Positions 10,116-51,611 of a stretch of DNA of 57,380 nucleotides are shown in pieces. The notes beneath the pieces are model-generated. The model searched no databases and had not been told where the DNA came from. It saw only the letters and a list, made by a program, of their open reading frames with translations. The stretch is from the UHGV virus genome UHGV-0150885. One strand, written 5' to 3'. The position numbers were made by a program, and so were the translations under genes. The DNA comes from a virus. Position 1 is the stretch's first letter. Each line of letters begins with the position of its first letter.

Positions 10116-10223
10116 TGTGTTTCTCCTATGGTTAAAATGAACGCGCGGGCGGGTATCCCATTAGCATTAGGTAGCAGTGATTGACCGCTCAACAGATCCC
10201 GCCGTTGCGTGATATTTGTTTTT

Positions 10224-10255
10224 CGCTTCGCAGCGACACCAGGTTTTTAAAGAGC
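10224..10255 (-). promoter_or_regulatory. nutR-like site (boxA GCTCTTTAAAAA + boxB hairpin CGCTGCGAAGCG) on leftward transcript
   Basis: Reverse complement reads GCTCTTTAAAAACC...CGC-TGCGAA-GCG; same boxA as two + strand nut sites. Confidence 0.4.
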
Positions 10256-10335
10256 TTTTAAGGTATGCGCCTTTTTGTGCTATTCCCTCATCTTTTTTCT
10301 TGCGTCTTTGCAAGTCCGGCTTTACCTTGTCTGCA

Positions 10336-10363
10336 AGTTTACAGAATGGTGTTTTTCGGTCAA
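10336..10363 (-). promoter_or_regulatory. Candidate PR promoter (TTGACC -16- TAAACT) for leftward early operon
   Basis: Hexamers on - strand between cI start and first leftward gene. Confidence 0.4.
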
Positions 10364-10422
10364 GGCTTGAAAAATACATTTTGTGACTTGCATCAAACTT
10401 TTTAGGGCGATAGGGTAGCGAT

Positions 10423-11070
10423 ATGAAAACAAAATGGTATGACTTAGCAAAACAACTCATGCGGGCGCAAGGCATGAGCCAGGATTCATTGGCGGATCTC
10501 ATGGGGATCACAAAAGGCGGCTTATCTCACTGGCTGAATGGTCGCCGCGAGCCAAATCTTGAAGATATTGCGCGGATTATGCGGGCGCTTGGTCGTCGGC
10601 AGTTTACGGTCACTCATGACGGGATGGTTATCGATGATTCAGTTTCAAATACGTTGCCGGGAGCGCCGCCGCTCGACGTGGGACGTTATCCGGTTATTGA
10701 CTGGAAAGACGCAGGAAACTACATGGAAGAAGCAAAACGCGCATTACTACCACACGTTAACACGAGCGTGATTTGTTCGGATGATAGTTATTGGCTGGTC
10801 GCAAAAGGTGAGTCAATGAACGCACCGCAGGGATTAAGTATCCCGGCAGGGACGATGATACTTGTCGATCCGCACGCGCCAGCTATTGACGGCAAACTGG
10901 TTATAGCCCAACTGGAGGAAGGGCAAACGCCGACGTTTAAACAGTTAATCATTGATGGAGGTCAAAGGCTTTTACGTTCGCTTAATCCGCTGTACCCACC
11001 AATCCCGCTAAACCCTGAATCAAAAATTATTGGCGTGGTGGTGGATGCAAAGATCGTAAACCTGCCATAA
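10423..11070 (+). CDS. cI: CI-like repressor, HTH-XRE + LexA-like peptidase S24 domain
   Basis: 215 aa; N-term HTH (QDSLADLMGITKGGLSHWLNG); C-term S24 motifs (KGESM ... TFKQL). Confidence 0.85.
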   Translation: MKTKWYDLAKQLMRAQGMSQDSLADLMGITKGGLSHWLNGRREPNLEDIARIMRALGRRQFTVTHDGMVIDDSVSNTLPGAPPLDVGRYPVIDWKDAGNYMEEAKRALLPHVNTSVICSDDSYWLVAKGESMNAPQGLSIPAGTMILVDPHAPAIDGKLVIAQLEEGQTPTFKQLIIDGGQRLLRSLNPLYPPIPLNPESKIIGVVVDAKIVNLP

Positions 11071-11075
11071 ACATT

Positions 11076-11100
11076 AGCCGCCGGATGGCGGCTTTTCTTT
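11076..11100 (+). terminator. Rho-independent terminator after cI
   Basis: AGCCGCC-GGAT-GGCGGCT hairpin followed by TTTCTTT. Confidence 0.6.
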
Positions 11101-11180
11101 GCCCGGAAAGCACCAAAACGTAAACCGAAAACAGTTTTTATTGTTTGAATATCAATGAGATAGAAAATATTTTAAAAAAG

Positions 11181-11222
11181 TATACAAAATGGATTGACTC
11201 AACATATCACGGGGCGTATATT
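11181..11222 (+). promoter_or_regulatory. Candidate PL promoter: TATACAAAATGG box, -35 TTGACT, 17 bp, -10 TATATT
   Basis: Near-consensus sigma70 hexamers with 17-bp spacer upstream of nutL and N-like gene. Confidence 0.5.
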
Positions 11223-11267
11223 GCGAGTCAAAGGAGGGAAGGCAGTAGAAAAAAGGAAGTTTGAAAA

Positions 11268-11302
11268 TGCTCTTTAACAATCCGGTTGCACTGAAATGTG
11301 CA
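11268..11302 (+). promoter_or_regulatory. nutL-like site: boxA TGCTCTTTAACAA + boxB hairpin TGCAC-TGAAAT-GTGCA
   Basis: rrn-type boxA followed 7 nt later by 5-bp stem/6-nt loop hairpin, 30 bp upstream of N-like gene. Confidence 0.55.
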
Positions 11303-11332
11303 GACATAAATTTCAACTAAGGAAATAAGATT

Positions 11333-11623
11333 ATGAATGCGAAAATTACTTACGGTAACTGTGAGAGCAAACTTAACGCCCGCGCCCGCCGACGGATGAA
11401 ACGGGCAGCAGAGCAAGATGAAGGCCCGCACATACAGAAGGTTGATAGAGTGGAAAAAGCTATTCGCTTTGCAAATGAGGAAAAATGCGAACCAAATAGC
11501 GTTAAAGGACGTCGCAAGGGAGCAACAAAATGGTATCAGGAAAATGAAAGCGGCAACTACTTTCACGCAACGCAGCCGCGCCAGCTTGGGGAAAAACCCC
11601 TCGATAAAGTCCGATACCATTAA
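11333..11623 (+). CDS. N-like transcription antitermination protein
   Basis: 96 aa; N-terminal arginine-rich motif NARARRRMKRAAEQ like lambda/P22 N ARM; first gene after PL and nut. Confidence 0.6.
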   Translation: MNAKITYGNCESKLNARARRRMKRAAEQDEGPHIQKVDRVEKAIRFANEEKCEPNSVKGRRKGATKWYQENESGNYFHATQPRQLGEKPLDKVRYH

Positions 11624-18885: not shown

Positions 18886-18964
18886 TTTACAAAATGGCGT
18901 CATTGTGTGATGAGCGTCACATAATGGCGCTTTTCATCTTGTCCGGGCGTATCCATTTTGTATA
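18886..18964. promoter_or_regulatory. Regulatory region: inverted TTTACAAAATGG / CCATTTTGTATA boxes flanking a perfect CRP-consensus-like palindrome TGTGATGAGCGTCACA
   Basis: Palindrome at 18906-18921; boxes at 18886-18897 and 18953-18964. Confidence 0.4.
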
Positions 18965-38337: not shown

Positions 38338-38691
38338 TTAGGCCGCGCCAGCGTTGATTCTGTTATGGATTGCGTGCCCCTTTATTTCTCCATGTCTGAA
38401 CACTTCCGCGACTTCGGGATCTTTATTTTCCGCTTTCAATGCTTCGTATTTTTCGTGTATTTTTCTTGCTTTAACTATTTCCTTGTCAAGAAATGGTATT
38501 AAGGCTTTTTGTTTACACGCCATGTCAAAAATAATTTCTTTATACCCCGTACCGTCACCGTGTCTTATGTCGTACAGGTGCGCGGCGTGAGCGCATTCAT
38601 AAATAGCCTTATCCATTTTATCGTCGGCGTGGGCGTTAAATGCAAAACCAACCAGCGCCACCATCATTACTACTTTCGCTAACCGTTTCAT
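38338..38691 (-). CDS. Secreted/periplasmic moron protein with signal peptide
   Basis: 117 aa; MKRLAKVVMMVALVGFAFNAHA signal peptide; reverse orientation inside tail operon. Confidence 0.55.
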   Translation of the reverse strand: MKRLAKVVMMVALVGFAFNAHADDKMDKAIYECAHAAHLYDIRHGDGTGYKEIIFDMACKQKALIPFLDKEIVKARKIHEKYEALKAENKDPEVAEVFRHGEIKGHAIHNRINAGAA

Positions 38692-38702
38692 AAAACACCC
38701 CG

Positions 38703-38927
38703 TTAAATATCAGCAATTTTTACAATGTTTTTGTCTTTAATGATTCTATTGCCGACTTGAAACCCTTTAACTAATCTCAACCAGGCTTCCTTTTGTGCTG
38801 GGTGATCAATGTGCTCCCATTCCTTGTTATTGTTTCTCCCGGCGTACACTTCGCCGTCGATGATTTTAAATTGTTCGCCTTTGTGGAAGCCACCAATTTT
38901 TTCATAGATACCATCATAACGTTTCAT
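38703..38927 (-). CDS. Moron protein (74 aa), hypothetical
   Basis: Same 5' translation-initiation sequence (GGGGTGTTTTATGAAACG) as downstream gene. Confidence 0.5.
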   Translation of the reverse strand: MKRYDGIYEKIGGFHKGEQFKIIDGEVYAGRNNNKEWEHIDHPAQKEAWLRLVKGFQVGNRIIKDKNIVKIADI

Positions 38928-38979
38928 AAAACACCCCCACTTAATTGTTTTGTTTAACTATCTTTTCCTTTGACTTCCT

Positions 38980-39021
38980 TATACAAAATGGAGTCGGTAA
39001 AGTAAAGCCATTTTGTATAAA
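38980..39021. promoter_or_regulatory. Palindromic divergent promoter unit: TATACAAAATGG -16- CCATTTTGTATA, with TATAAA/TATAAG -10 hexamers in both orientations
   Basis: Perfect 12-bp inverted repeat; each box sits 24 nt upstream of a -10-like hexamer on its strand. Confidence 0.45.
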
Positions 39022-39058
39022 ATAGAGGCACAGATCACATTTTGTATGAGGTTAAATC

Positions 39059-41401
39059 ATGGCTACCAGTTTAGGTACAATTTATTACGAGATCGACGCC
39101 AAAACAGGGCAACTCCTTGTCGTACAGCGACAGGCCGATCAGACATTCGACAGTATCGAGCGCGGCGCAAAACGTGCTGACCGCCAGGTTAATACACTGA
39201 AAACATCAATCAAAGCACTGACCAGGGTTATCCACCTGTTAGTCGCAGCGGAGGCCGTGCGCCAGTTTATTGACATGGCAGAGCAGGCAAAACAGCTACG
39301 CATAAAAATCAAAATGCTGACAGGTGACGCAGAAAGCGCAAACCGGGTTTTTGATGGCCTTAAATCTATCGCTCACCAGACCGGGCAAAGTATTAAAGAT
39401 ACAACCGACCTATGGCAAGGTTTAGCCATCTCATTAAAAAATACATCTGCCACCGAAGGGCAGATCCTTAATCTGGTAGGCACGCTTCAAAAAATGGGGG
39501 CGTTAGGCGGGGCATCAGCCGAACAAATGTCTAACTCCATGCGCCAATTCCGGCAGGCGGTTGACGGCGGCGTACTGCGTGCGGAAGAATTTAACAGTTT
39601 ACTGGAAAACACCCCAACCATCGTACAAACAATGGCAAAACAAATGGGGTTATCAATGGGCCAGTTCCGCGCCGAAATGCTGGAAGGTAAGATCACCGCT
39701 GAAAGAATGGTCAACGCTATCCAGGCGGCAACGAAAGAAACAAACGAGCAATTTGAACAACTCCCGCGCACGTCCGGCGTTGCGTTCAATTCGCTAAAAA
39801 TCGAAGTCATGGGACTGGTTGAAAAACTCGATGATCTATTAGGCGTGTCAGACAGAGTGGTCACTATCCTGGATAATACTGCCACTGGTGGACGATGGCT
39901 GGGCGAAAAAGTGAGTTTTGCAGCTAACTGCTTTAATACATTGAAGCGCGCTGGAGGTGAGTTTATCGACATGTTTGATGATGTTGCGGTTAAGGCTAAG
40001 GAGGTTGCCGACAAGATCATCGAAATGGTGACGCCAATTAAGGCAATGATGGATGCTTATAAGTGGGCGAAGGAATTGGTCGGAAAAAGCAAGGATGAAT
40101 ATAACAGCGATCCGTTCAAGAAATACGGTAAACGCTTAGGTTGGGCGATGTTAGCATGGGAAGACCATCAAGGAATGCTTAAACGCACAGAAGAAGCGCA
40201 GAAGGAAGAACAAGCCTCAAATAATGATGGCAGTATCACCGGATTTGACAAACCAGTTGGCAAGCCGAAAAAACAGAAGAAAGCGAAAAAATCAGACTAT
40301 GACCGCTTAGGCGATCAGGGTATCAGTGTTTCCGACCAGTACAACAAAGACGCCGCCGCCATGCGCAAAGCATTAAAGAGCGGCATGGCCATTGATGCTG
40401 CCTTCGCCCAGGGCAAAATCACGCTCCTTGAATACAAAGGCGCTATGAAGGGCATAAGAGAAGAAAGGGATCGCACGCTGGCTGGACTTGAAGCCGAAGC
40501 CTTGCAAGATAAATGGGATAACATGATTAATCCTATGGATAAACTCAAAGGGCAAGTAGATCCCATTCAGCAGGCGCAAAATGAATGGGCCATCCGTAAG
40601 CAAATGTTGTTAGATCTGAACGCCTCAGAGGCACAAATCCGGGCTGAACAACTCCAGCATGAGCAAACCATCGCCAACCTGAAGTGGGAACAATGGCAGG
40701 CGCAAAGCGATACTAACGCCCTAATAGGCGATTGCGTCAGCGGCTTAAAAGGCGGCATGAGCAACGCTATCACCGGATTATTGAACGGTACGCAATCCCT
40801 CAGTGAGATGTTTGCTAACCTGGGAAGCAATATACTCGGTACGGTGGGTAACAGGCTTGCCGACATTGCCGGGAACTGGATAGCCGATCAAATCATGATG
40901 GAAAGTCAGAGTAAGGCAACGCAAGCCAGCACCACGGCTGGCGCGGTAGCGGCGCAAGGTCAGATTGCAGCGGCAGCGGCCCCGGCGGCAGCGGCGACAG
41001 CGGCGTCAACTGGCGGTAGCTGGGCGGCGGCTGGCGCGGCGGCACTATCCGCGATCATGTCACTGGCGACGTCGATTTTCGGCGGCGGGCGCTACAACGG
41101 CGGCGCGGTTAACGGTGGCAATCTTTACAGGGTTGGTGAGCACGGTATACCAGAACTGTTTACTACCACTGGCGGGAAACAGTACATGATCCCCGGTGAA
41201 GGTGGGCGTGTTACACCAGGCCGCGACCTGGGCGGCAGCGGTGGCATCAACATGCCTGTCAGTATCACAGTTCAAACGACAAACGGTTTTAGTGATGATG
41301 ATAGCCGCAGACTTGAAGACACAATGAAGCGCGTAGCTATGAGTGTAGTCAGAGAACAAAGCACGCGTCCTGGCGGCATATTGCAACCACGCCGCAAATA
41401 A
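39059..41401 (+). CDS. H: Tail tape measure protein
   Basis: 780 aa; long helical protein with Gly/Ala-rich C-terminal segment; position before gpM. Confidence 0.85.
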   Translation: MATSLGTIYYEIDAKTGQLLVVQRQADQTFDSIERGAKRADRQVNTLKTSIKALTRVIHLLVAAEAVRQFIDMAEQAKQLRIKIKMLTGDAESANRVFDGLKSIAHQTGQSIKDTTDLWQGLAISLKNTSATEGQILNLVGTLQKMGALGGASAEQMSNSMRQFRQAVDGGVLRAEEFNSLLENTPTIVQTMAKQMGLSMGQFRAEMLEGKITAERMVNAIQAATKETNEQFEQLPRTSGVAFNSLKIEVMGLVEKLDDLLGVSDRVVTILDNTATGGRWLGEKVSFAANCFNTLKRAGGEFIDMFDDVAVKAKEVADKIIEMVTPIKAMMDAYKWAKELVGKSKDEYNSDPFKKYGKRLGWAMLAWEDHQGMLKRTEEAQKEEQASNNDGSITGFDKPVGKPKKQKKAKKSDYDRLGDQGISVSDQYNKDAAAMRKALKSGMAIDAAFAQGKITLLEYKGAMKGIREERDRTLAGLEAEALQDKWDNMINPMDKLKGQVDPIQQAQNEWAIRKQMLLDLNASEAQIRAEQLQHEQTIANLKWEQWQAQSDTNALIGDCVSGLKGGMSNAITGLLNGTQSLSEMFANLGSNILGTVGNRLADIAGNWIADQIMMESQSKATQASTTAGAVAAQGQIAAAAAPAAAATAASTGGSWAAAGAAALSAIMSLATSIFGGGRYNGGAVNGGNLYRVGEHGIPELFTTTGGKQYMIPGEGGRVTPGRDLGGSGGINMPVSITVQTTNGFSDDDSRRLEDTMKRVAMSVVREQSTRPGGILQPRRK

Positions 41402-41405
41402 ACAA

Positions 41406-41436
41406 AACCCCGGTACAATGCCGGGGTTATCTTTTA
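41406..41436. terminator. Bidirectional terminator after tape measure gene
   Basis: CCCCGG-TACAATG-CCGGGG hairpin + TTATCTTTTATT. Confidence 0.6.
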
Positions 41437-41616
41437 TTCAACTTCGTCGTTTTTAAATTCGTTGTTTACATAAAGCTGTAATGCTTTTATTAGTTCGGCG
41501 GCTTGCTTTTTGTCTATTACGATAAGTTCGCAGTCGCTTTCAAGCCATAATCTTTCGTCATACTCAATGCTAAGAGTGATTCGCCTACATTCTTCCGTTT
41601 CATTAATAATCATCAT
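41434..41616 (-). CDS. Moron protein (60 aa), hypothetical
   Basis: ORF track; last gene of reverse-oriented 3-gene cassette. Confidence 0.45.
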   Translation of the reverse strand: MMIINETEECRRITLSIEYDERLWLESDCELIVIDKKQAAELIKALQLYVNNEFKNDEVE

Positions 41617-41723
41617 TTACCCCTATAATCGACCATTCCGCGCGACATATCCCCTTCCGAAAATCACCTGCCAAATATTCCAGATCTCCCGCCATGTAAA
41701 TTTATCATCTTCCATATCCCACC

Positions 41724-41978
41724 TCACTTATGGCAACCGCGCACGCCGCATAATTCATTGTATTTGTGGTGTTCAACAATTAACCAAACCTTTAAGTCCT
41801 GACTGTAAAGCCGCCAGTCGGGGTTAATATCCATTTTGTAGCCGTATCCATCGCGTAATTTTTTGGGGTAGGCTTCTTTTCTCAGGAAAGCGTTTAATAA
41901 AGCCTTACCTTTTTTGATGATCCGGTCCTGTGCGTTTTTCTGTGCTTTCAGGTTTTTATCAATCGCTACCAGTTTCAT
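41724..41978 (-). CDS. Moron protein (84 aa), basic, hypothetical
   Basis: ORF track. Confidence 0.5.
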   Translation of the reverse strand: MKLVAIDKNLKAQKNAQDRIIKKGKALLNAFLRKEAYPKKLRDGYGYKMDINPDWRLYSQDLKVWLIVEHHKYNELCGVRGCHK

Positions 41979-41997
41979 AGCCCACCCCCATCATCCT

Positions 41998-42165
41998 TAG
42001 TTGACCGCTTTCAGGTAGAAATCCCGATATTCGTTTGCTTTCACGTTCATGTAGAACTGGCCCATTTTGAACGCATCATCGAAGCCTTTAACAATCGCTA
42101 CTTCTACTTGTTCGAATGCGTCGTTAAGCATTACGACTGCGTAGTGTTTATCGTTGCCTTTCATC
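41998..42165 (-). CDS. Moron protein (55 aa), hypothetical
   Basis: MKGNDKHYAVVMLNDAFEQVEVAIVKGFDDAFKMGQFYMNVKANEYRDFYLKAVN; strong SD AAGGAGG. Confidence 0.45.
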
Positions 42166-42205
42166 TTGGGCCTCCTTTGTTGGTACTGCTTTCTTCTTGC
42201 TTTCT

Positions 42206-42247
42206 ATATACATCTTGTTGCGTCCTGTGTGAAGCCATTTTGTAAAC
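42206..42247 (-). promoter_or_regulatory. Candidate promoter for reverse cassette 2 (TTTACAAAATGG box, 24 nt, -10 TATATA)
   Basis: Same box-to--10 spacing as the other promoter-family members. Confidence 0.45.
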
Positions 42248-42332
42248 TGGTTATAATTCTTGTGATGAATATCTCATTTTTCGCGTAGCAACGCGTAAAG
42301 ATGTACACAAAATGTAACTTATAGGGGGAAGT

Positions 42333-42686
42333 ATGCCGGAAGTGTTTACCTGGACGCCGCAGCGAAGCTACAGCGTAACCAGGGAGCCAAACGTATCGGT
42401 CGTCAAGCTGGGTGATGGTTATGAGCAACGCCAGGTTAAGGGGATTAATCCCTTGCTCGACGACTACAGCGTGGTTTTTAAAGGTTCGAGCGCCGGATGT
42501 GGTGACGCTGGCAATCCAGCGGTCCAGGCAGAGGCGTTTTTACGGGCGCGCGGCGCGGTCGAGGCGTTTTACTGGACACCATCAATGGATGGGGAGCAAA
42601 GGCTTTTTGTCTGCCGAAAATGGAACATGACGAAAGACGGCCCTGTATACACGCTAACCGCGACATTTGAACAAGTTATCAATTAA
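42333..42686 (+). CDS. M: Minor tail protein M
   Basis: 117 aa; colinear with lambda gpM (VKLGDGYEQRQ, FYWTP, ATFEQVIN vs lambda RFGDGYSQRA, FLWTPP, AEFEQVVN). Confidence 0.85.
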   Translation: MPEVFTWTPQRSYSVTREPNVSVVKLGDGYEQRQVKGINPLLDDYSVVFKGSSAGCGDAGNPAVQAEAFLRARGAVEAFYWTPSMDGEQRLFVCRKWNMTKDGPVYTLTATFEQVIN

Positions 42687-42695
42687 GGGGGCAAC

Positions 42696-42881
42696 ATGTA
42701 CGGGATGTGCGTTAAGACGGGCGATGAATCATTTACGCTATTCGAAGACTATCAGATCGATAACCTCACGGTAGTGAGTGACAAGGGCGACACCTGGTAT
42801 CTGCATGACTACGGCGACGGGTATGTGGGATGCAGATCATACGAAGGGAAGGAGTATTTATTTCTGATTGAGGGCGTTTAA
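42696..42881 (+). CDS. Hypothetical protein (61 aa)
   Basis: ORF track; SD AAGGGGG; inserted between M and L. Confidence 0.45.
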   Translation: MYGMCVKTGDESFTLFEDYQIDNLTVVSDKGDTWYLHDYGDGYVGCRSYEGKEYLFLIEGV

Positions 42882-42882
42882 T

Positions 42883-42969
42883 ATGCTGATTGATGGTTTA
42901 GTAATGGTATTCATTATCGCGGTAGGTATGGCTATTTTTTACGAAATCGATAGCCGGAACGACAAATAA
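42883..42969 (+). CDS. Tiny hydrophobic peptide (28 aa)
   Basis: MLIDGLVMVFIIAVGMAIFYEIDSRNDK. Confidence 0.35.
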   Translation: MLIDGLVMVFIIAVGMAIFYEIDSRNDK

Positions 42970-42976
42970 AATAACA

Positions 42977-42998
42977 CCCCGCCGGAGCGGGGTTTTTC
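42977..42998 (+). terminator. Rho-independent terminator
   Basis: CCCCGC-CGGA-GCGGGG + TTTTTCG. Confidence 0.6.
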
Positions 42999-43002
42999 GT
43001 GT

Positions 43003-43140
43003 TAGAAGTTCATGTGCATCAATCCCATTGGGTGAGCGTGTGCCATATTCTCAGCTATTGCGCACCAGTCCAAATCCGCAGCGTGTACGCCAAATACTAT
43101 CAATCCCATTGCTATTAGTGCTAAAACTTCGATTTTCATG
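43003..43140 (-). CDS. Small secreted peptide with signal sequence (45 aa)
   Basis: MKIEVLALIAMGLIVFGVHAADLDW... Confidence 0.35.
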
Positions 43141-43150
43141 ATTCACTCCG

Positions 43151-43231
43151 TTAATTCAGAAAGGCATAAACAATGGCGATTGCGCCAGCCACTACCAGAA
43201 CATTTTCAATTACTTCGTCCACTCTATTCAT
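43151..43231 (-). CDS. Tiny hydrophobic peptide (26 aa)
   Basis: MNRVDEVIENVLVVAGAIAIVYAFLN. Confidence 0.25.
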   Translation of the reverse strand: MNRVDEVIENVLVVAGAIAIVYAFLN

Positions 43232-43435
43232 TTAAGGCAACTCCACTTCGTTGAATGTAACAAGCACCCCTTGATTTTCTTTGTTAATGATTATGAAAGA
43301 ATTAATTGAGGGTAAGTATTTTTCTACTCGGTAAACATCGCCAATATCTAAGCTAAAATATTCTGTTAGCTCCTTATTGTTCCCCTTAGTAAAACCAGTA
43401 AACCTGACTGTTTCTTGCCCGTCGTACTTTAACAT
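43232..43435 (-). CDS. Moron protein (67 aa), hypothetical
   Basis: ORF track. Confidence 0.45.
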   Translation of the reverse strand: MLKYDGQETVRFTGFTKGNNKELTEYFSLDIGDVYRVEKYLPSINSFIIINKENQGVLVTFNEVELP

Positions 43436-43443
43436 ATGCGGTC

Positions 43444-43692
43444 CTACAGGTTATCACGCAGATAATTAACGCCCTTGTCAGTGACGAATGAATGATTAAC
43501 CTGGTTTTCATCCGTCATGATGATGAATAACTTTTCCTGCAAATATTTCGCTTTCGGGTACAGCGTTAAACAGACCTGGTACAAAATCCCGCGCTCAATC
43601 AGCAAATCAATAAATTCGTGCTCATGATAACCGATAAGGCGGGCGGCTTGTTTCAACGTGTATACATAGTCTCCGTGATTACGCCGCGCCAT
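43444..43692 (-). CDS. Moron protein (82 aa), possible DNA-binding
   Basis: ORF track; YTLKQAARLIGYHEHEFIDLLIERGIL HTH-like segment. Confidence 0.5.
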   Translation of the reverse strand: MARRNHGDYVYTLKQAARLIGYHEHEFIDLLIERGILYQVCLTLYPKAKYLQEKLFIIMTDENQVNHSFVTDKGVNYLRDNL

Positions 43693-43701
43693 ACTGCCAC
43701 C

Positions 43702-44052
43702 TTATTTATTGAAAGCGCCCAGGTTATCGATGCAGAAATCTTTTGCCGCTTTTTCGTATTCCTGTTTTGCTTTCGGGTCGTCTGCCGGGAAACCGTGCGC
43801 GTGTATTTCCGGGCAAGATTGATCCATAGAATCCGCAAGGTTTTCTTTAAAACAAGCATTGTTATCAATATCGTATTTCATATCTTCCACCTTTTCCGCT
43901 ATTTGTACTGGAGTGACCACATAGTCGCGGGCATTAGACCAACATCGCAGCAGTTCTCGCCCTTCCGTATGTGCTTTAACGTCTGTGTCATATAAACCTA
44001 TACATTCCCAATTGCACCGATCCGTAAACACTTCGAGCTTATATTTTTGCAT
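43702..44052 (-). CDS. Moron protein (~116 aa), Cys-containing, hypothetical
   Basis: ORF track, start chosen at MQKYKLEV; N-terminal extent uncertain. Confidence 0.45.
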   Translation of the reverse strand: MQKYKLEVFTDRCNWECIGLYDTDVKAHTEGRELLRCWSNARDYVVTPVQIAEKVEDMKYDIDNNACFKENLADSMDQSCPEIHAHGFPADDPKAKQEYEKAAKDFCIDNLGAFNK

Positions 44053-44270
44053 CCTACTGATCCCCGTTTTTAATCGGTTTAATCCGGTAGCCCAGGACGC
44101 GATCATCTTTTTCTGACAGGTCGAGAGCTGTTTCCAATGCGTCGCTGGGATTATCGAATTCAGCCTCAACATCACGCCCGCTACTCATAAACAAGGTTAG
44201 CCGCCATAGCTTATCGTTCATCCCGTACCCCTTTTATGCCGTTTTGTTAACTTCCCCTTCGTTTGAGTAA

Positions 44271-44309
44271 AATATACATATTGTAAAAATCGCGATCAAT
44301 CCATTTTGG
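44271..44309 (-). promoter_or_regulatory. Candidate promoter for reverse cassette 3 (CCAAAATGG box, -35 ATTGATC, 17 bp, -10 TATATT)
   Basis: Nearly identical architecture to candidate PL. Confidence 0.45.
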
Positions 44310-44353
44310 CGCGATTTAGCGTGACGCAGATCACAAAATCGAAAGGTGAGAAA

Positions 44354-45058
44354 ATGCGCAATATACCTACAGAGATGATTATTGATTCCGTCGATGCGGG
44401 AGTCGGCGCAATCATTGACTTGTTCGAACTGGACCTTACGCCCCTGGGAGGCGAGGTTATCCGCTTCCATTCCGGCGCGAACGGCTATTACGGCCCGGTT
44501 ATCTGGAAGGGCGTAGCTTACAACAGCTACCCGATCGAGGCGACAGGCTTCGAAATGAAAAACGAGGGTGTTTATTCACGGCCCCAAATGGCTGTAGCCA
44601 ACATTGAAGGGCTTATTACCGGAATGAACACCGATTACAACGACCTTCGGGGGATGAAGGTAACGCGCCGCCAGGTGGAGGTAAAATATCTGGATGCCAT
44701 TAACTTCCCTAATGGCAATCCCGATGCAGATCCATCTATTGAAGCGGTATCGGTTTACGTCATTGAAGCTATGAGCGAAGAAACCGCCGACCAGGTGCAA
44801 TATGAACTGGCAACGCCAATTGATGAAGATAAAGCCATTATCCCTGGCCGCACCATTCTTGCGGACGTTTGCCAGTGGCAATACAAAGGTGATGGATGTG
44901 GTTACGCTGGCGGGCCAGTTGCAACAGACAAAGACGTTCCGACTAATGATCCAACATTAGATCGGTGCAGCCACCGCTTGAGCGGTTGCCGTTTACGTTT
45001 CCCGCGCCCGGCGGCACTGCCAATCTCCTGTTTTCCGGGGTCCAGTAAGGTAGGTTAA
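44354..45058 (+). CDS. L: Minor tail protein L
   Basis: Colinear with lambda gpL (IDLTPLGGEV, PIEATGFEM, VTRRQV..YLDAINF, CQWQYKGDGCGYAG, CSHRLSGCRLRF). Confidence 0.9.
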   Translation: MRNIPTEMIIDSVDAGVGAIIDLFELDLTPLGGEVIRFHSGANGYYGPVIWKGVAYNSYPIEATGFEMKNEGVYSRPQMAVANIEGLITGMNTDYNDLRGMKVTRRQVEVKYLDAINFPNGNPDADPSIEAVSVYVIEAMSEETADQVQYELATPIDEDKAIIPGRTILADVCQWQYKGDGCGYAGGPVATDKDVPTNDPTLDRCSHRLSGCRLRFPRPAALPISCFPGSSKVG

Positions 45059-50617: not shown

Positions 50618-51216
50618 TGGCTACTTTTGGCGCTTATTTACGCCTGGATAATGGCAATATTTTTGTGACGCCGGATTCTACCCCGATGTGTTTATATTCG
50701 CGGGTGGCCTTAAATTCCAGCCAGCAACAAACGATCGCTGTACCCGACGGCAAGCCTGTAATGGTATTCATCAAAAACACCGACGACACCGCCACGGGGC
50801 TTGCTTATCGCGCATCATCATCTACGGTAGTGATCCCGCCTGGTAACGGGTATGCGTATATATTCAGCATCTTCCCGCCATCGCTGCCGAGATGGGGGAT
50901 GGCTATCTGGAACGCTTCCGGGGAATTGGTACTGACCAATGAATCAAAAATATTAACCGACCTTGTTACAGTAGGCACGGCGGGATCGAGCGGGGGGATT
51001 TATATCGATCAAACATTATCAGGATCTTATGCGGTAGTGCCTCAGATATTAGGGGCCGTTGTAGGTATGGGTTCTGCAACAATATATACAGAGGCATACT
51101 ACAACGGCAGCACTACACGAATTCGCGGAAAACAGGTTGGTAGCTTGCAGCAGGCTTACAGCTACATTAACCACGGGAACGCTATCACCGCCATTAAAAC
51201 CGACGCCTATGATTAA
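50617..51216 (+). CDS. Hypothetical tail-region protein (199 aa), MATFG family
   Basis: ORF track; N-terminus MATFGAYLRLDNGN. Confidence 0.5.
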   Translation: MATFGAYLRLDNGNIFVTPDSTPMCLYSRVALNSSQQQTIAVPDGKPVMVFIKNTDDTATGLAYRASSSTVVIPPGNGYAYIFSIFPPSLPRWGMAIWNASGELVLTNESKILTDLVTVGTAGSSGGIYIDQTLSGSYAVVPQILGAVVGMGSATIYTEAYYNGSTTRIRGKQVGSLQQAYSYINHGNAITAIKTDAYD

Positions 51217-51452
51217 TTCAGTTCCGGGCAATCCGTTTTCTTGAAGTGGTCAACGCTCACCCATTGGAAATTGAACGGATACCCGGCCTTAACCATTTTG
51301 TGACCGCCAACATCTGCAACGCCAAAGACTGCAACCGCATATTCATTACCGCCAGTTTGATAGATTGCTGTACATTCACGTTTTGGCATATCAGCACAAC
51401 CAACCAGACCAGCAACCATTGCAGCGATAGCGATATTTTTTAAACCTTTCAT
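51213..51452 (-). CDS. Small lipoprotein, Cor-like candidate
   Basis: MKGLKNIAIAAMVAGLVGC lipobox; GGAGGG SD; reverse-oriented between J and tail-fibre genes. Confidence 0.6.
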   Translation of the reverse strand: MKGLKNIAIAAMVAGLVGCADMPKRECTAIYQTGGNEYAVAVFGVADVGGHKMVKAGYPFNFQWVSVDHFKKTDCPELN

Positions 51453-51611
51453 TGTCTTACCCTCCGTTGTTTCGTTGGTTGTAGTATCCATAAACCGCAT
51501 TTTTACAACATTGATGTAAATCAACAAACACATTTTGTATAAACCAGAAATGTAACATAGATCACAAAATGGTAGAATTATTCCGTTAATTAACATAATG
51601 GAGTCATTGCA

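Follow-up and report, generated by a model that had tools for sequence, protein, structure and literature searches.

Morons of lambdoid phages, a concept of Hendrix and colleagues, are exemplified by lambda lom and bor, HK97 gp15, and cor, and genes that lie inside the late operon and face it are typical prophage cargo. The tail genes M and L are adjacent in lambda. In this study, we analyzed the DNA between M and L in the virus genome UHGV-0150885 (57,380 nucleotides, nt; this whole stretch is called the window), where the two genes are 1667 nt apart and the gap holds a predicted leftward operon built around r82, which encodes a putative stand-alone KilAC/ANT-domain protein of 82 amino acids (aa). 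Studies have shown that KilAC domains can act against cell division or the SOS response. For example, CreP of Acinetobacter baylyi ADP1, a stand-alone KilAC protein of 103 aa that shares the conserved motifs TxKG and AKxLxL with P1 KilA, has a bacteriostatic effect, makes both A. baylyi and E. coli grow as filaments, and brings down FtsZ weakly in co-precipitation (bioRxiv 10.1101/2024.01.05.574328). Filamentation of E. coli is also caused by the KilA-type C-terminal domain of Phi11 Gp07 (PMC5944126), and Listeria AriS uses its KilAC domain to block the SOS response (PMC9043618).

The mEpimmI phages are a Nus-dependent group of temperate coliphages described in 2025 and reportedly found in human gut E. 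coli isolates as often as lambdoid phages. A KilAC-like antirepressor was counted among their near-core genes, and its cassette, promoter, and function were not discussed there (Negrete-Mendez et al. 2025, PMC11893012). The window belongs to this mEpimmI (mEp021) coliphage group as a metagenomic member, and the 2.4 kb around the island showed patchy identity of 82–89% to mEp010, mEp013, mEp021, mEp044, mEp515, mEp554, and MagusPhagus. The genes gp70–gp74 of mEp021 and their counterparts in the other six phages have the same M–L position, the same orientation, and the same core genes. The KilAC protein of mEp021 was 100% identical to r82, and the two proteins encoded upstream of it, r116 and r55, were only 66–67% and 52–54% identical, respectively, to those of mEp021 and mEp044. 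In addition, the window has the genes r26, r67, and p28, which are absent in mEp021, and mEp021 has a 77-aa gene between r116 and the KilAC gene. The kind of locus is familiar, namely a moron-type accessory operon with a KilAC protein, and its genes are already annotated in GenBank relatives.

The leftward operon between M and L

A first-pass annotation, made from the sequence alone, had described an island of about 1.65 kb between M and L with two small forward open reading frames (ORFs), a terminator, and five reverse ORFs. The gap measured 1667 nt between flanks confirmed by Pfam, and the two forward ORFs (61 and 28 aa) and the terminator hairpin (42976–42993) were all found. The reverse ORFs of 45, 26, 67, 82, and 116 aa stand where they had been placed, but the minus strand holds six in all, since the 55-aa r55 (44054–44221) had been overlooked. 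For comparison, 47 viral contigs retrieved via the L protein were combined with four annotated records, and 45 mEpimmI loci were compared; the counts of loci and the ratios of nonsynonymous to synonymous substitution (dN/dS) given below refer to these. The features from M to L are as follows:

42333–42686, plus strand: M, minor tail protein of 117 aa, left flank (PF05939, 105.5 bits)
42696–42881, plus strand: p61, 61 aa, directly behind M (phrog_3249, E 6e-19; 44 of 45 loci; dN/dS 0.09)
42883–42969, plus strand: p28, 28 aa, hydrophobic and transmembrane-like, variable (only 5 loci; dN/dS 0.10)
42976–42993, no single strand: bidirectional hairpin resembling an intrinsic terminator, end of the reverse operon (7-bp stem with 6 G-C pairs, T-runs on both strands)
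43002–43139, minus strand: r45, 45 aa, N-terminus like a signal peptide or transmembrane segment, variable tail, last gene of the operon (dN/dS 0.11)
43151–43231, minus strand: r26, hydrophobic peptide of 26 aa, optional (11 loci; dN/dS 0.09 from only 4 distinct sequences)
43232–43435, minus strand: r67, 67 aa, optional (9 loci; weak match to phrog_14327, E 2e-6; dN/dS 0.11)
43444–43692, minus strand: r82, predicted stand-alone KilAC/ANT domain (PF03374), the most conserved island gene (44 loci)
43702–44052, minus strand: r116, orphan protein of 116 aa with a variable N-domain and a conserved C-terminal region that contains Cys and His
44054–44221, minus strand: r55, acidic protein of 55 aa, first gene of the operon (phrog_29559, E 7e-13; 43–44 loci, two allele classes; dN/dS 0.21)
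44239–44247, minus strand: second block of the ACAAAATGG type, here ACAAAACGG, in the 5' leader predicted for the reverse transcript
44271–44309, minus strand: leftward promoter P44309, predicted from sequence (CCAAAATGG, 1 nt, TTGATC, 17 nt, TATATT)
44320–44335, no single strand: CRP-like palindrome cGTGA-N6-TCACA, upstream of P44309 and 19 nt before the start codon of L
44354–45058, plus strand: L, tail protein of 234 aa, right flank (PF05100, 234.5 bits)

On the minus strand, behind a sigma-70-like promoter, the genes run in the order r55, r116, an optional insert, r82, the optional r26 and r67, and r45, and the stop codon of r55 lies 1 nt before the start of r116. On the plus strand, p61, whose counterparts are annotated as mEp021_70 and mEp044_101, starts 9 nt behind M in the same orientation, and p28 would be 33 aa long if TTG at 42868 were taken as its start. 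An independent gene caller found p61 and five of the six reverse ORFs (r55, r116, r82, r67, and r45) and missed p28. The hairpin at the end of the operon stands in the path of late transcription and has folding energies of −14.3 and −15.8 kcal/mol; terminators are annotated at the equivalent place in the mEp021 and mEp044 records, and a terminator hairpin was the sole match, and a weak one, in an Rfam scan of 41300–44500.

Like morons, the island is located in the late region and separates genes that are neighbours in relatives (M and L are 132 nt apart in the relative L041, compared with 1667 nt in the window), its G+C content (0.36–0.45) is lower than that of M and L (0.52–0.56), and it carries, at the level of sequence, its own promoter and its own terminator. 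Unlike morons, which are sporadic single genes, it is a multi-gene operon whose core is fixed throughout the group. Judged from sequence, the interval is a self-contained leftward accessory operon of mEpimmI phages and not structural, which agrees with the earlier description of a reverse-oriented cassette with its own signals. An origin as a transposon or homing insertion was considered and rejected, as only short scattered repeats were found and none of them bracketed the island.

The core r55, r116, and KilAC gene was found in 44 of the 45 loci, in constant order and always between M and L, and one IMG/VR contig (L005) was identical to the window across the analyzed region. The most divergent KilAC protein found, with 73% identity, was still encoded between L and M. 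The distal part was variable, with r45 in 32 of the 44 loci (two tail types), r26 in 11, and r67 in 9. An extra gene lay between r116 and the KilAC gene in 6 loci, being a 77-aa ORF in 5 of them (mEp021 included) and an HNH/AP2 homing endonuclease in 1 (L031). In the one locus without the core, the near-full-length 53.9-kb contig L041 (IMGVR_UViG_3300045988_076424), everything from p61 to r55 is gone. Because this contig retains the leftward promoter, now pointing into M, and the whole segment upstream of L, we regard the absence of the island as a secondary loss. The island is a fixed feature of the mEpimmI (mEp021-type) group and not an insertion private to this phage, and it is more conserved than had been assumed. 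The first-pass annotation had called it inserted, which was misleading; it had also stated that a lack of conservation of the ORFs as a unit in related prophages would speak against its reading, and the unit proved to be conserved. The M–L junction was also considered as a slot for reverse cassettes in distant relatives, and this was rejected, since the gap in L049, whose L is 39% identical, holds one forward Gly-rich ORF of 622 aa.

Across the 45 loci, dN/dS was 0.09–0.21 for every island ORF, the values for r26 and p28 resting on only 4–5 distinct sequences. Of the 42 copies of r55, 2 contained a stop codon, which in at least one case came from a frameshift, and the other ORFs had none. Purifying selection of this kind is incompatible with meaningless ORFs. 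In the lineage of P0039 and L053–L055, a frameshift fuses r55 to r116 and gives an ORF of 171–192 aa. In the window, r116 and r82 share a reading frame (43693–43704), with only a TAA stop and the three codons Gly-Gly-Ser between them; this may be chance, since other relatives hold a whole gene between the two.

The KilAC protein and its upstream partners

The protein r82 matched PF03374 (ANT/KilAC) with 29.9 bits, against a gathering cut-off of 25.3, over residues 10–82 and profile positions 23–105 of 108, and precomputed PF03374 matches were present in 6 of 7 cluster relatives. It had previously been said that the island held no recognizable domain, and this match contradicts that statement. 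The amino-acid identity of r82 was 90–100% in the 44 loci. Outside the group, it was 35% identical to residues 149–219 of the 233-aa Ant of Cronobacter phage ENT47670 and it shared 30–38% identity with Rha- and Ant-type proteins of Vibrio, Hafnia, and Stx phages in their C-terminal parts. Its motifs T70-D-K-G73 and A17-R-L-I are the counterparts of TxKG and AKxLxL, which were named for CreP and P1 KilA, and T71 and G74 are invariant in alignment A2. PDB sequence searches with r82 and r116 gave nothing meaningful, and Foldseek found no match for the r82 model in BFVD. Judged by its profile match and motifs, r82 is a stand-alone KilAC/ANT-domain protein.

P1 KilA, Phi11 Gp07, Listeria AriS, and ENT47670 Ant are two-domain KilAC proteins, and r82 aligns with the C-terminal KilAC domain of ENT47670 Ant. 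Unlike these four, r82 has no Bro-N, KilA-N, AntA/B, or Rha N-terminal domain and does not qualify as a two-domain antirepressor. Similar to CreP, it is a single-domain KilAC protein of about 80–100 aa that has the TxKG motif and no N-terminal partner domain. In contrast, CreP is encoded in a CRISPR-Cas locus, where a CRISPR-like RNA represses it, whereas r82 lies in a phage operon behind two orphan proteins, and the two are likened here by description.

The proteins r116 and KilAC co-occurred in 44 of 44 loci. The N-domain of r116 (residues 1–55) is variable and confidently folded in the model; the C-terminal region (residues 70–116) has at least 20 invariant residues, yet its predicted local distance difference test score (pLDDT) is below 50. 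The protein falls into 44 sequence clusters, and all clusters with a named source are from E. coli. In an exhaustive profile search of 1.8 billion representatives, r116 recovered only its own family, fragments, and two repetitive proteins that were judged spurious. No similarity was found between r116 and the N-terminal part of ENT47670 Ant, and r116 has no N-domain of that type; r116 and r82 as a split Ant gene were ruled out because r116 is unrelated to this part.

The mean pairwise nucleotide identity in 43 loci was 93–97% over most of the KilAC gene and 90–93% over the 3' part of r116; r55 and the 5' part of r116 reached only 53–79%, and the promoter reached 88–93%. The synonymous divergence (dS) was 0.33 in the KilAC gene, compared with 0.75–0.95 in its neighbours. 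Together with the 3' part of r116, the KilAC gene makes up a single conserved module, and the r116 N-domain and r55 diversify.

With regard to the remaining proteins, r55, r67, r45, r26, and p61 matched only PHROGs of unknown function or nothing, and r45 had no family match in the libraries scanned. The Prokaryotic Genome Annotation Pipeline (PGAP) labels r55 as a transporter, a label that found no support in NCBIfam or Pfam and was rejected. In a search of PADLOC-DB v2, none of the eight island proteins had a match with an E value of 1 or below, and the suggested defence module accordingly corresponds to no defence family in PADLOC. The remote-homology search that had been proposed for the 67-, 82-, and 116-aa proteins revealed KilAC in the 82-aa protein, whereas the 67-aa protein gave only the weak match to phrog_14327 and the 116-aa protein stayed an orphan.

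The promoter and the other reverse islands

The promoter with an upstream block that had been proposed at 44271–44309 was recovered, with TTGATC-17-TATATT at 44299..44271 and CCAAAATGG at 44309..44301. In 34 distinct relatives, the −35 element, the −10 element, and the upstream block are nearly invariant, and the second block in the leader is kept as GCCATTTTGTTAAC in all relatives, the deletion variant L041 included. The window holds 14 copies of ACAAAATGG, compared with 0.88 expected (about 16-fold; 0 of 100 shuffles reached 14), and 4 copies of the composite pattern (block, 1 nt, −35, 17 nt, TATAWD), compared with 0 expected, and the conserved promoter family claimed earlier is borne out by these counts. 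Five promoters, namely P11184, P25167, and the reverse-island promoters P39016, P42243, and P44309, can be aligned over a ACAAAATGG block, 1 nt, a −35 element, 17 nt mostly ending in TG, a −10 element, and an AGTCAA(A)GGA-like start region, and this AGTCAAAGG-like start region is part of the shared design. Further sites of the promoter family lie at 18889/18961. The block ACAAAATGG may serve as an UP-like element or as the binding site of a further factor. P11184 is PR-like and precedes the N-like antiterminator gene, and P25167 is PR'-like and precedes the endolysin and spanin genes. Because the same design occurs at a PR-like promoter, which has to be repressed in lysogens, and at a PR'-like promoter, the timing of a promoter cannot be read from the design.

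P44309 has neither the inverted repeat TTGACTC...GAGTCAA nor the lambda-like word TATCACG of P11184, which lies in the P11184 spacer. In the immunity region (10116–11335), the CI-like repressor gene (10423–11070; HTH_3 and Peptidase_S24) shares its strand with the N-like gene, boxA-like GCTCTTTAA is found on both sides, at 10247–10255 (reverse complement) and at 11269, and TGCAAGT occurs three times at 10309–10392, near the leftward promoter. TGCAAGT, the TTGACTC inverted repeats, and TATCACG were considered as repressor operators; they were inconsistent between the two early promoters and led to no conclusion.

Upstream of P44309, the arms of the CRP-like palindrome (44320–44335) are invariant in the 34 distinct relatives and its centre is free to vary, which we take as the signature of a dimer-binding site. 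By our estimate, this centre is at about position −63.5 relative to the inferred start of transcription. P42243 also has such a motif upstream, the weaker TGAGA-N6-TCACA.

A second reverse island (41406–42332) lies between the tape measure gene (39059–41401) and M, a third (38338–39021) lies just before the tape measure gene (H), and a Cor-type gene is also on the minus strand:

38338–38691, minus strand: ORF of 117 aa with a signal peptide, third reverse island (no family match)
38703–38927, minus strand: ORF of 74 aa, third reverse island (no family match)
41406–41428, no single strand: bidirectional terminator, end of the second reverse island
41434–41616, minus strand: ORF of 60 aa, second reverse island
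41724–41978, minus strand: ParE_like toxin of 84 aa (PF24732, 44 bits; PGAP: ParE family toxin)
41997–42164, minus strand: ORF of 55 aa, small partner upstream of the ParE-like toxin
51213–51596, minus strand: Cor-type exclusion lipoprotein gene in the tail-fibre region (NF047972, 53 bits)

The second island sits behind P42243, which has the same design as P44309 and, like it, is almost invariant across relatives, and the ParE-like gene with its small upstream partner was present in 43–45 of the related loci. The promoter region of the third island is a 34-bp palindrome, ACAAAATGG-N16-CCATTTTGT (38983–39016), which is promoter-like on both strands. Studies have shown that the Cor-type lipoproteins of mEp021 and mEp010 excluded phages when they were expressed from plasmids (PMC11893012).

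Proposed function of the operon and its alternatives

Our favoured reading is that the island is an accessory operon with autonomous transcription, in which KilAC probably acts on the host and r116 probably buffers KilAC, and, judging from sequence and analogy, we give this reading a probability of about 40%. Transcription would run leftward from the sigma-70-type promoter P44309 (44309..44271) and stop at the bidirectional terminator (42976–42993). The effector would be r82, acting on a host protein of division or of the SOS response. The unstructured tail of r116, which shares its conservation with the KilAC gene, may bind and buffer KilAC as an antitoxin holds a toxin, and the fast-evolving r116 N-domain and r55 would be the adaptable part. 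In the late phase of growth, rightward transcription, being antiterminated, would pass the terminator, meet the operon head-on, and silence it. Transcription in the prophage seems somewhat likelier to us than purely early-lytic expression, and the pointers to it are the orientation and insulation of the operon, the ParE-like sister island, the reverse Cor-type gene, and the absence of the PR-like repeat and TATCACG at P44309. From the ParE-like and Cor-type neighbours, a toxin-antitoxin-like or exclusion role in the prophage is plausible.

Similar to type II toxin-antitoxin pairs, for example the ParE-like pair of the H–M island, the operon has small genes that are predicted to be co-transcribed, with a conserved disordered tail encoded upstream and a conserved protein downstream. 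Several points weigh against the buffering of a KilAC effector by r116. Neither r55 nor r116 matched Pfam, NCBIfam, or PADLOC, and hence no antitoxin or defence family; KilAC is not listed as a toxin-antitoxin family in the libraries used, so that, unlike type II pairs, this one belongs to no known family and is compared through KilAC by analogy. In 6 loci, another gene parts r116 from KilAC, whereas the two genes of a tight toxin-antitoxin pair usually adjoin each other. Instead of functional coupling, a recent spread by recombination could explain why dS is low in the KilAC gene. In addition, r82 is only 30–38% identical to other KilAC domains, and the three characterized KilAC domains do different things (bioRxiv 10.1101/2024.01.05.574328; PMC5944126; PMC9043618). 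Finally, lysogens must keep the PR-like promoter, which has the same design, repressed, and P44309 may be repressed in the prophage as well.

The same proteins could form a dedicated anti-phage defence or abortive-infection module in the lysogen, with KilAC as the toxin, the r116 N-domain and r55 as phage sensors, and r45 and r26 as membrane accessories. The cassette is reverse-oriented and insulated, its diversifying components adjoin the conserved effector, the neighbouring islands hold a ParE-like toxin and a Cor exclusion gene, and CreP is a precedent for a lone KilAC as a bacteriostatic toxin (bioRxiv 10.1101/2024.01.05.574328). However, we find a dedicated defence role doubtful, as the eight island proteins have no PADLOC match, r116 and r55 show no overall sign of positive selection (dN/dS of about 0.2), and both phage sensing and expression in the lysogen are putative. 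We regard as decidedly unlikely the fuller proposal that r55, r116, and KilAC make up a previously undescribed KilAC-based toxin-antitoxin or abortive-infection system of prophages, in which the r116 tail would hold the KilAC division-arrest effector until the hypervariable r116 N-domain or r55 sensed an invader or a physiological cue and caused its release, and in which the tail module of mEpimmI phages, with the ParE-like and Cor islands, would be a three-slot defence rack under one promoter design. An early host-takeover or anti-defence cassette would have P44309 as a strong constitutive-type promoter that fires right after infection or induction and is turned off in the prophage by the repressor or another factor, with KilAC blocking division or the SOS response like lambda Kil and with r55 and r116 countering host defences. 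P44309 does share the upstream block, the TG before −10, and the purine-rich start region with the PR-like promoter of the N-like gene, and r55 and r116 are small, acidic, and fast-evolving. Such early use is nevertheless unlikely in our opinion, because the same design is found at the PR'-like promoter and before the ParE-like toxin pair, which depends on steady expression, P44309 lacks the PR-specific inverted repeat, and prophage cargo typically lies within the late operon and faces it.

KilAC/ANT domains are typically found in antirepressors, and in mEp021, r82 carries that annotation; KilAC could be an antirepressor, or part of one, that inactivates the CI-like repressor and serves as an induction switch, which would open a non-SOS route to induction, perhaps under the CRP-like site. 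The repressor of the group has no RecA-cleavage site and the lysogens are not induced by ultraviolet light (PMC11893012), and the CRP-like palindrome upstream of P44309 is conserved. Against such a switch, which we consider very unlikely, r82 is devoid of an antirepressor-type N-domain, the estimated centre of the palindrome is off the usual CRP class I spacing, and no LexA box was seen by eye in 44230–44340. It is extremely improbable that the genes serve tail assembly or the virion, for example as chaperones, or that the small ORFs mean nothing. The location within the tail module and the placement of p61 directly behind M would suit a structural role, but the six core and distal genes face the other way and have a promoter and a terminator of their own, the near-full-length relative L041 is without the whole island including p61, and meaningless ORFs are ruled out by purifying selection.

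The operon is one of the most stable non-structural features of mEpimmI phages. If division or the SOS response is arrested by KilAC, and KilAC in turn is buffered by r116, r82 would be the second natural lone-KilAC growth-arrest effector after CreP, a KilAC effector would gain a protein partner, and a service of prophage cargo to its host would be revealed. If the operon is ordinary cargo of unknown function, the result is routine annotation. The shared promoter design offers a handle on the wiring of accessory genes in the mEpimmI group.

A minor observation concerns the borders of the reverse islands. Words like GATCACAAAAT or GATCACATTTTGT occur at 39030–39045, 44326–44339, and 51560–51572, 10–50 nt upstream of the forward gene that follows each reverse island (H, L, and the ORF at 51612), and they may be module-boundary or re-initiation signals.

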